Part shown: positions 21,001 to 24,000 of the stretch, one piece after another | How positions within the stretch are numbered: position 1 is the first letter of the stretch | Layout of the letters: every line of letters starts with the position of its first letter | From: Candidatus Nanohaloarchaea archaeon | GTDB lineage: Archaea; Nanohalarchaeota; Nanosalinia; Nanosalinales; Nanosalinaceae | Length of the DNA: 64,000 bases | NCBI GenBank assembly: GCA_041640075.1 | Contig: JBEQAY010000002.1 | Location: 1-64,000, forward strand | Reading direction: 5' to 3' | Made by a program: the position numbers

Positions 21001-24000
21001 CCAGCCCTCTACTCCTTTTGAAAGATCATCTAGCAGCCGGTCGATATCATGGAAAAGGATTTCAAGATCTTCATTCCGACTAGGATCGACTAACTCATTC
21101 GGTCCAACTCTGGCACGCATCTCATACCCCTCAGGAGGATCGCCGACGAACCTGGTATCATAAGCAAAGTCTTCGCCTAGAGTCTCGCCAGTAGCTACCT
21201 TTACACGCTCGGCAAAGTTTTCGGACAGAAAATAATCGACCAGTGTATCGAAAGCCTGTGTCGAAACATCTTCAACTTCTTTCAAAGGCATCATACGGTC
21301 TTCGATAACTTTACGACCAAGCCTGTGACCTGTCTCATGTCCAAGCAAGGCCTGCTCATCAGAGGAGGTATCAGGATCAAAAAGAGCTTCAGTCACGATA
21401 TACCTGTCTTCATCCTCTCTGTATATCATACCAAGCTGTTTGATAACGTGTAGAGAGCTGCAGTAATCCAGTCCTGATTCTCTAGTAAGGTATTCCCCGA
21501 TCTCCCTTCTATCCTGGACATCCATGAAGTCAACAGTAGTGGATGGATAAGTCGGCGCACCGGCAGACTGTAACTCGCTGTGAATAGTCTCAGCCCGAGC
21601 ATTCAAATCCCTGAGAGCTTCCTGACCATATGTTCCACCTTCTTCCAGACTCACAACTACTATAACCTGTTTAAATTAAAATACCTTTCCTCTCCAACCA
21701 TTTAACTCGGGAGAAATTTCTACAGGCACAAAGTTTTTGGAACTCACCTCTCAACATCCGGTTATGATAGAACTTGACGGAAAGACCGCAATCATAACAG
21801 GTGCATCATCCGGTATCGGAAAAGCAACAGCACACAGACTCGCAGAAGAAGGAGTCTCAGTCGCACTCGCCTCCAGGACCCAGGAAGAACTAGAGGAAAT
21901 CGCAGAAAACATCAAGGAAAAACACGAGGTAGACGCATTACCGGTTGCAACAGATGTAACCAGCGAATCCGAAGTAGAAAACCTTTTCCAGGAAACAGAA
22001 GACGAATTTGGGGAAATCGATATCGTGGTCAGCAACGCAGGGCTCGCCATGACCGGAGAAATCGAAGACATGCCGACAGAACACTACAAAACCAACAACG
22101 ACGTCAACATCGACGGCATGTTCTACGTCGCCAGAGAAGCAATCCCACACGTCAAGGAAACCGAAGGAAACATCATCTTCCTTGGAAGCATCGCAGGAAA
22201 ATACCCACGAGGAGGAAACCCGGTCTACGCAGCCTCCAAAGCCTGGACAATCAGCTTTGCCAAAAGCCTGTCTGCACAGATCGGCGATGAAGGTGTCGCA
22301 GTAACAGTAGTCAACCCGTCCGAAGTCAGGACTGACTTCAACTCCGAAGAGGGAACAGCATTCAAGGAAACATTCGAAGAAGGCTCAGTCACCGAACCAG
22401 AGAGCATCGCCGACGGCATAATCTACGCAGCCAGACAGGAAAAAACCAACACAGTAGAAGAACTCAACCTCTACAGGAGAGACAAACTAGGCGACATGCA
22501 TCTCGGCTGAGTTATTCTTCACTTCCTTCTAAGAAGATAAGAGAAGTATTAAGCCCCTGGTACACCAAGTGCTTTTGACCTTATGCCAAATACGGACTCC
22601 AATTTTGTCACTACAAAAGATGCAATCCATGCAAGGACTGCTATCTGGAAAGCAGTACCTATTCCTACATTGTATGTCTGTGTAACTACTAGAAGCCAGA
22701 CGATAAATGTTATAGCAGAACCTAAGAGTGGTATCCAACCTGCGAAAAGACCTACAAGTGCCCAGGCTACAGCACCAAGAAATGCAGTCATCGCTGCCGT
22801 CTCCAAGCCAGCACCAACACCAGCATACTGAGCACCGAGAAAGATACCCGCAGTACCAGTTACAAAGCCAATCAACAAGTGAAAAATAGAATCAATCAAA
22901 CCCATAATCTTTGTTTTGGGAAAAACTTCCTGATAAAAAATGGGTTTATGAAAGCCGCCGAACTGTGGCTTATTGCGTGTCCAAAAATCTCACAGAGATT
23001 TTCTTGATTCAGAAAACCTCCAAAGGTTTTCGGCAACCGAGCGTCGCAGTCTACTTCCAGATGAAGTTGGCCTGCTCAGAACAGATTTTTCCGAAAAATC
23101 TGTGTTAACCAGTTGCTCCACCCGGGATTCGAACCCGGGACCGCCGCCTAACTTAAGACACCAGCTGAGCTGGTGACCTGTGGAAACAGGTCTGTATTGC
23201 TAACTGCTACGAGCAGTTATAGGCAACGTGCAGGCCTTGCGGCAAAGTTTTTCTGCACGAGGTCCGTATAAGGACGGTGCTCTAACCCCTGAGCTAGTGG
23301 AGCTTGGCTTCCTATGTATGTGGAATCTCTGCGTAAATTAAAAAACCTTTACAGGTCGGCGTGTTTTCTGCCGGGGTTAACTGATTAAATTCTGGCGTGA
23401 AAAAACCTGTTTATTCATGGATTCAGGAAGTGGTTTGCCGGTTGCCGGGGTTATACTCCTGCTGAATCTTGTTTCTGTATTTTTGATCGTCAAGCGGCAC
23501 AGGTTTGACTGGGAACTCGGTCTAAGGAAGCGTTTCGGCGTTGACCGGCACTGGTGGATTCCCTTGATTGCTTTAGGTTTCGCTGTGTTTTTCTCGATAG
23601 TCAGTTTCTCCAGTATCCAGACTGCTTTTGTCGAGAAGTTTGAGATCATTGCGTTGATTTTTTCGTTCGGTGTGATGGCGGAAGGTTTGAGAGCCTCTGG
23701 TTTTTTCCGGCATCTGGCGTACAGAATAGTTGAGAGAGGTAGAGGAGATACTGGTAAACTGATACTTTACATGTTCGTTTTGACGTCTGCTGTGACCTTT
23801 TTCACTTCCAACGATATCGTTATCTATGTCCTGACCCCGATAATCGTTTCCATCTGCTTCCAGGCAGGGATAAAGAACACTAAACTAATTTTGCTATCGC
23901 AGTTTATCGCCGCCAATACTCTTTCTATGGGTATGATGATCGGTTCTCCGACCAACCTGATTATCGCTGAGTCTGTCGGCCTGGATTTTTTCTCTTACCT

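Follow-up and report, generated by a model that had tools for sequence, protein, structure and literature searches.

A gene for tRNA-Ile(UAU) with a 117-nt intron was located in the window, the whole stretch of 64,000 nt analysed from a Candidatus Nanohaloarchaea archaeon. Its product is almost certainly the only AUA-reading tRNA of the organism, replacing the lost TiaS/agmatidine system. The intron carries a conserved structure through which the precursor may refold into its own Cbf5 substrate and gain pseudouridine-34, a proposal from sequence comparison on which our judgement is evenly balanced. A wider reading, held tentatively and just short of such balance, is that across DPANN the intron acts as a cis-acting, K-turn-less, H/ACA-like Cbf5 substrate, which replaced agmatidine once and early and, with another enzyme, arrived at the same solution as yeast. 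Intron bases are numbered as i2, i15 and so on, and the own phylum is that of the present genome (G000, 89% complete); G058 is a single-contig genome of the same genus.

The gene was found by ARAGORN on the minus strand (c23114-23303) when introns were allowed, was missed when they were not, and scored 46.7 bits with Rfam RF00005. It comprised a 37-nt 5' exon, the intron and a 36-nt 3' exon (Table 1), and a strict bulge-helix-bulge together with the exons set the intron at position 37/38 (23266-23150). The tRNA-Ile(tat) with a 117-nt intron given at these positions in the genome-wide survey's note was borne out by ARAGORN, RF00005 and the strict bulge-helix-bulge alike. The neighbouring genes in the window showed no link to tRNA modification.

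Table 1. Positions in the window of the tRNA-Ile(UAU) gene parts and of the conserved intron elements.
Feature	Positions	Strand	Basis
5' exon of tRNA-Ile(UAU), tRNA positions 1-37	23267..23303	-	ARAGORN, RF00005, exon parse
Anticodon UAU; U34 = 23270, proposed pseudouridylation target	23268..23270	-	target inferred
Exon positions 29-32 (GUCC), fold-back partner of intron bases 2-5	23272..23275	-	pairing comparison, covarying-stem analysis
117-nt intron, canonical position 37/38	23150..23266	-	ARAGORN, bulge-helix-bulge
Intron bases 2-5 (GGAC); bases 2-4 same in 53/53 genes, base 5 in 51/53	23262..23265	-	comparison
i8-i14, 5' side of 7-bp stem with covariation (taking the part of H/ACA stem P1)	23253..23259	-	7/7 pairs change on both sides
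ANA triplet (AAA), intron bases 15-17, 14 bases from base opposite U33	23250..23252	-	comparison
3' strand of covarying stem, intron bases 34-40	23227..23233	-	comparison
GCCU motif, antisense to exon 38-41; could hold 3' anticodon-stem strand in fold-back	23221..23224	-	GCCT there in 40/53
Variable insert, three hairpins; missing in most relatives (median intron 57 nt)	23160..23220	-	comparison
Intron 3' end, within the bulge-helix-bulge for splicing: bulge, strands of outer and central helix	23150..23159	-	bulge-helix-bulge
3' exon, positions 38-73; discriminator A73; CCA not encoded	23114..23149	-	exon parse

PF08489, searched for TiaS, scored above cut-off in 1/70 own-phylum genomes (5/70 at E <= 0.1). 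The single match, a 189-aa ORF of genome G048, was rejected as TiaS, with E 0.74 against a full-length TiaS profile built from 18 full-length proteins. That profile had no match in G000 (best E 0.016) or G058 (best E 0.074). The absence of TiaS that the survey's note had reported from PF08489 was thus sustained, and its worry that a divergent TiaS might escape PF08489 was addressed in these two genomes. TIGR03280, considered as a further TiaS profile, was rejected, being methan_mark_11.

ARAGORN listed 39 tRNAs in G058, including Ile(GAU), Ile(UAU) and two with the anticodon CAU, in a list without some expected species. The two CAU tRNAs, read by eye, were the initiator and the elongator; in G000, 89% complete as it is, the initiator was the only CAU tRNA. 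The survey's note had cautioned that a tRNA-Ile2(CAU) could be hidden by this incompleteness; there was none among the 39 tRNAs of G058, where a multi-intron gene could escape ARAGORN. A CAU tRNA beside tiaS in L210, a candidate for Ile2, was an initiator.

Codon usage was compared over 134,520 aligned codons in 401 G000-G058 protein pairs. These held 3992 AUC, 2751 AUA and 1571 AUU codons, the same rank as in the earlier count. AUA sites were opposite an Ile codon in 1911/2751 cases and opposite AUG in 67, close to the figure for AUC (50/3992); AUA encodes Ile. The earlier assignment of AUA to tRNA-Ile(UAU), as the sole candidate reader of an Ile codon, was thereby upheld. Among the tRNAs of G058, Ile(GAU) was not the one most similar to the mature sequence, and charging with Ile by IleRS is presumed by exclusion.

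The 5'-half pattern of the gene matched 54/70 own-phylum genomes and 26/28 high-quality ones, with 0 matches for the reversed control, which reproduced the survey's counts; the 55 own-phylum matches were 53 complete genes and two cut by contig or fetch ends. Outside the own phylum, Ile(UAU) was found in 27/40 in one survey and in 50/251 with a strict pattern; a looser pattern applied to strict-negative genomes detected it in 3/5 and 5/5, and in the G372 phylum it was present in 4/5 genomes. The genes of neighbouring phyla shared both the intron site and the fold-back with those of the own phylum. A scan of the collection, with a pattern biased against A38, placed Ile(UAU), among the matches listed and by record titles, in Woesearchaeota, Pacearchaeota, Micrarchaeota, Aenigmarchaeota and Promethearchaeota. 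These genes stay hidden in annotation under the name tRNA-Ser, since UGA is often the start of the intron.

In phylum samples filtered at >= 80-85% completeness, PF08489 had no match in the G070 (0/29), G072 (0/251, including the unpublished G345 and G346), G071 (0/20) or G372 phylum (0/201), and matched 89/151 genomes of the G073 phylum as a control. Cbf5 was detected in 243 of the same 251 genomes, so that incompleteness does not explain the 0/251 for TiaS. The UAU pattern gave 6 matches in the 151 genomes of the G073 phylum; that of G073 alone parsed as a tRNA, and the five others were dismissed by eye. Five TiaS-negative genomes had no match to the UAU pattern.

The survey's note had read the switch to Ile(UAU) as specific to Nanohaloarchaeota and as otherwise reported only for Nanoarchaeum equitans and Korarchaeum cryptofilum. 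The first part found no support, as neighbouring phyla, in which TiaS was not detected either, also had an intron-bearing Ile(UAU). The second was refuted by Fujishima 2011 (PMC3239211), in whose available text ARMAN-2, -4 and -5 have Ile(UAU) and neither TiaS nor Ile(CAU); PMC6000648, PMC3895270 and PMC8450103, as far as their accessible parts go, mention no cases besides N. equitans and K. cryptofilum. Replacement of the agmatidine system was probably inherited from a DPANN ancestor, and one early loss of TiaS in DPANN is the simplest reading of these phylum samples, taken without a tree. A switch within Nanohaloarchaeota separate from that of other archaea is highly improbable: the anticodon stem does set the exons apart from those of other DPANN genes, and the DPANN distribution, which is treeless, is known from some phyla only, but TiaS was not found in any genome sampled in four other phyla that have Ile(UAU), the same-site intron and the fold-back. 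What was taken for a rarity is apparently the rule in much of archaeal diversity.

The 37/38 intron was present in all 53 complete own-phylum genes, with a length of 37-146 nt, and five other introns of G000 (Ala-UGC, Gln-UUG, Leu-UAA, Thr-GGU, Cys) were absent in G058. The central helix of the bulge-helix-bulge had 4/4 pairs in 36/53 relatives and 3/4 in 17/53, and the outer helix had all four pairs in only 9/53. Intron bases 2-4 were invariant, and base 5 was C in 51 genes and U in 2; bases 2-5 are thus kept better than splicing requires. They pair with exon positions 29-32 (32:i2, 31:i3, 30:i4, 29:i5) in 212/212 cases over the 53 genes, a count that represents few independent events, because the genomes are kin and the phylum has no variation in the exons. 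In the same register, 91/104 pairs formed in 26 genes of the G070 phylum, 150/164 in 41 genes of the G072 phylum and 28/36 in nine more G072-phylum genes, set apart from the 41 post hoc; one unpublished row, one row containing N and two unparsed rows were dropped from these counts. Slid registers reached at most 106/212 pairs and control introns of other tRNAs 29/96 (16/60 and 13/36), although one control intron, in an initiator tRNA, had all four pairs and another had three pairs plus ANA. Between phyla, compensatory changes occurred at 31:i3 (C-G to U-A or U-G) and 30:i4 (U-A to G-C). The difference between cognate and swapped pairing was weak (25/38 and 14/21), and hairpin z-scores were modest (medians -2.1, -1.9, -1.0 and -0.35).

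Beyond the fold-back pairing, i8-i14 formed a stem in which 7/7 pairs covaried and 94.8% were paired (44/53 genes aligned), a score that 0/500 shuffles reached. In many G072-phylum genes, the partner of this stem was the tRNA's own positions 20-28, in the 5' exon. An ANA triplet stood directly after the stem, at i15 or i16, in 51/53 own-phylum, 16/26 G070-phylum and 21/41 plus 5/9 G072-phylum genes, against 3/24 control introns (0/15 and 3/9). ACA exactly at i15 occurred in 17/41 G072-phylum introns vs 11/1197 other positions. The own-phylum box was AAA within an A-run in 33/53 and never ACA at i15, for which the null explanation could be a loop that is simply rich in A. GCCU, antisense to 38-41, closed the stem in 40/53. 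A 5' pocket after an unpaired UN was not found, the two bases after the GCCU pairing being UA in only 3/44. The design was eroded in some lineages, being full in 1/4 G372-phylum genes and without ACA in the nine G072-phylum genes; in two 17-nt introns, the ACA was completed by exon base 38. By eye, no boxes C and D were seen in the 53 introns, Rfam at cut-off gave tRNA only, and inspection of the same introns gave no conserved upper stem, tandem G-A pairs or K-turn.

The conserved antisense motifs could alternatively serve an excised, circularised intron acting in trans as a permuted H/ACA guide, with GCCU on 38-41 and (A)GGAC on 29-33 leaving U34-A35-U36-A37 unpaired for double modification. 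There are precedents, since Cbf5, with an ACA box present, makes two modifications in an unpaired UVUN target (PMC7075261, in the part available) and the tRNA-Trp intron guide works in trans (PMC4090602, likewise). This reading is nevertheless very unlikely: only 4+4 pairs would open the native anticodon stem, many G072-phylum genes have the tRNA's own 5' exon as stem partner and an intron of 17-30 nt, and an ACA completed by exon base 38 fits action in cis only.

Refolding in cis is the preferred reading, and would give the intron two jobs in two folds of about equal energy. Computed energies were -80.9 kcal/mol for the spliceable fold and -79.4 kcal/mol for the fold-back of the present gene, and the two forms were within 3 kcal in 38/53 genes. 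In the first fold, the intron would make the spliceable bulge-helix-bulge. In the second, i2-i5 would pair with exon positions 29-32, placing U33-A37 in a six-base loop atop the stem. The ANA triplet would then follow 14 bases further on in the 3' strand, and U34 would stand where the ruler puts the target. In archaeal H/ACA guides, as given in the accessible parts of the sources, the target lies 14 nt from the ANA box (PMC2651775) or, by the n+15 rule, 15 +/- 1; the 3' side of the pocket matters most, its helix is stacked on stem P1, and Cbf5 reads the two A's of the box and tends to favour the 5'-most U that is unpaired (PMC7075261). The fold-back would mimic this geometry (3' pocket helix, P1 stem, ACA box), and Cbf5 with Nop10 may bind it in cis and make pseudouridine-34, perhaps also pseudouridine-36, before splicing. 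The upper stem and the K-turn are missing, and the cis topology is unlike any tested Cbf5 substrate; these two features speak against the Cbf5 reading. Cbf5 also acts on tRNAs unaided by a guide, using its PUA domain and the CCA end; it left a rigid acceptor-plus-T minihelix unmodified (PMC2018633, available text).

How U34 is kept from reading AUG, the question raised by the survey's note, is a real one: a haloarchaeal U34 tRNA-Ile receives cnm5U34 and binds AUG (PMC3895270, part available). Pseudouridine-34 would prefer A over G and, as we infer, would also deny Elp3 the C5 position for 5-cyanomethyl-U, which misreads AUG. In the part of it available, PMC3895270 leaves open how archaeal U34 reads AUA but not AUG, and a self-guiding intron would be a concrete mechanism.

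Among five own-phylum genomes, Cbf5 was present in 5/5, Nop10 in 5/5, Elp3 in 4/5 and Pus10 in 4/5; G000 encodes a 318-aa Cbf5 and Nop10. Four archaeal Ile(UAU) genes, in G320, G738, G376 and G074 and probably of two lineages, were intronless, and neither of the Cbf5 domains DKCLD and TruB_N was detected in any of the four genomes, for one of which completeness is given. Five genomes without a DKCLD match kept the intron (5/5), by DKCLD alone, which missed Cbf5 in G071. Absence of Cbf5 was rejected as the cause of the nine G072-phylum introns without ACA, as 9/9 genomes had a weak DKCLD match (E 3e-7 to 7e-4).

The fold-back could serve another enzyme or base: Pus10, to which the loop would look like a T-loop (U33 and U34 in place of 54 and 55) and the NCA like the CCA end, or Cbf5 acting on U33. 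Pus10 occurs in four of the five genomes counted above, and NCA at i15 was more frequent than ACA in the G072 phylum (26/41 introns). No more than 21/53 introns have a first base that pairs with U33, which makes U33 a possible target of Cbf5. The own and G070 phyla, however, keep ANA and not NCA at this site (NCA in 0/53 and 1/26), as suits an enzyme that reads two A's, and the intronless genes coincide with missing Cbf5 in 4/4, Pus10 having been surveyed in the own phylum only. We regard this alternative as unlikely.

Quite unlikely, in our judgement, is that U34 stays unmodified, the tRNA body and the ribosome rejecting AUG as in Mycoplasma mobile, and that the intron complementarity is left over from its origin or helps splicing. 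The M. mobile tRNA-Ile2(UAU) does have an unmodified U34 (PMC3575796, part available), intronless Ile(UAU) genes occur in the four archaeal genomes and in many bacterial records, and some introns lack the design. Such a view leaves unexplained the ACA at one fixed position, the covarying stem of fixed length, the compensatory changes between phyla and the 53/53 retention of the intron, and one would expect Elp3, where present, to act on a U34 left free. Modification of U34 by Cbf5 in the fold-back, if true, would suggest why this intron stays while other introns come and go, and would possibly give tRNA introns and Cbf5 a new role.

Searches of full-text literature, out of whose reach lay subscription papers, tRNA databases and part of the supplements, listed no paper on a nanohaloarchaeal Ile(UAU), a DPANN-wide loss of TiaS or an intron-borne H/ACA-like element. 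The terms looked for in bioRxiv 10.64898/2026.10.13.758758 had no match. Of the papers available in part, PMC9976931 had nothing further on UAU in that part, the account in PMC3491384 is there confined to the C/D guide of the N. equitans Met intron, and in PMC12397907 the ARMAN-2 precursor serves as a substrate for splicing.

Ile(UAU) without TiaS is already known from a few small archaea, and what is new here is the conserved intron structure. The present tRNA resembles the Ile(UAU) ('Ile3') of ARMAN-2, -4 and -5, N. equitans and Ca. K. cryptofilum in its anticodon and in the lack of TiaS and Ile2(CAU), and that of ARMAN-2 also in the 37/38 intron with a strict bulge-helix-bulge (PMC3239211, available text). 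It differs from the reported Ile3 cases in its new lineage, much wider spread and longer intron; for those cases, the accessible parts of PMC3239211, PMC6000648 and PMC8450103 ascribe no modification role to the intron. With archaeal H/ACA guides, including that for pseudouridine-35 in pre-tRNA-Tyr, it shares the ANA at 14-15 from the target, the 3' pocket pairing, the P1-like stem and Cbf5 with Nop10 (PMC2651775 and PMC7075261, parts available). Unlike them, it holds these elements inside the substrate's own intron, lacks the upper stem and K-turn, and has the wobble U as its proposed target; it resembles the H/ACA family and is not a member of it. As with the C/D guides in archaeal tRNA-Trp and tRNA-Met introns (PMC4090602, PMC11408192 and PMC3491384, in part), the intron is proposed to inform a position-34 modification of its own tRNA, but without C/D boxes, with pseudouridine instead of a 2'-O-methyl group, and probably in cis. 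A parallel in function is yeast pre-tRNA-Ile(UAU), in which the intron leads to pseudouridine-34 and -36 by Pus1 and loss of the intron lets Elp modify U34 (PMC4090602 and PMC11408192, as far as available); anticodon, intron site, AUA/AUG problem and Elp-type competition are alike. In yeast, the stand-alone Pus1 acts on an anticodon-intron helix, whereas here the precursor, with its anticodon in a loop, would be a substrate of Cbf5.

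Intron-bearing tRNA-Ile(UAU) genes were miscalled by ARAGORN as Ser(tga), Ala, Asn or Tyr at 13 loci (L026, L041, L048, L054, L067, L068, L085, L089, L110, L375, L376, L377 and L383), and the spread of these genes may have been overlooked because of such miscalls. In several relatives the gene lay at most about 250 bases from a contig end (L139, L151, L152, L153, L157, L164 and L166), as at an integration site or in a variable stretch. No link was seen between the tRNA and its neighbours in the window, a CobQ-like amidotransferase and an ArsB/CitMHS-type transporter (coordinates tabulated below). 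Identical duplicates of tRNA-His and of tRNA-Gly(UCC) in the source genome may represent an assembly repeat or an integration site.

Nine Ile(UAU) introns of the G072 phylum (L181-L189) lacked ACA and had in common a small hairpin near bases 9-20; the genomes carrying them had the most diverged Cbf5 N-terminal domains. An intron-bearing Ile(UAU) gene was also present in a Promethearchaeota record (L287), with the intron-exon fold-back and the NCA triplet displaced by one base; its genome had a match to Cbf5 and none to TiaS. Within that phylum (G073), 151 genomes were searched with the TiaS domain profile PF08489; 62 of them gave no match, and the AUA reader of these 62 was not found with the sequence patterns used. 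An initiator tRNA with multiple introns adjoined tiaS in genome G394.

Among the matches listed, most of the bacterial ones (L007-L124) were intronless tRNA-Ile(UAU) genes, and many of the records had Patescibacteria or Saccharibacteria in their titles. Most of these listed genes had C at position 38, a share biased by the exclusion of A38 from the search pattern. Ile(UAU) genes of DPANN type occurred in records titled Methanosarcinales and Omnitrophota (L082, L112, L084 and L085), which are perhaps mislabelled or mixed bins; the Methanosarcinales-titled records, of about 1 Mb, had no TiaS match. The genes at L082, L084 and L112 seem to be interrupted a second time, by an intron in the T arm.

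Coordinates of features in and beyond the window
Feature	Location	Strand
CobQ-like amidotransferase	window 25729-27060	
ArsB/CitMHS-type transporter	window 23417-24859	
tRNA-His, identical copies	G000 C11:19751-19825 and 19978-20052	
tRNA-Gly(UCC), identical copies	G000 C8:2076-2149 and C47:3624-3697	
tRNA-Ile(UAU), Promethearchaeota	G073:C1:2295066-2295094 (L287)	
Initiator tRNA adjoining tiaS	G394, L210:2499-2654	
Elongator tRNA-Met, guide-like intron (by eye)	G058:C1:318071-318229 (L246)	minus
Elongator tRNA-Met, guide-like intron (by eye)	G000 C23:11429-11623	

On inspection by eye, the elongator tRNA-Met intron contained a 9-nt antisense segment directed at the anticodon loop of the same tRNA; after it come D- and C-like boxes whose spacing would fit methylation of C34. 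The tRNA-Trp intron was similar in layout. This arrangement of antisense and D/C-like boxes in the tRNA-Met intron is of a known type.
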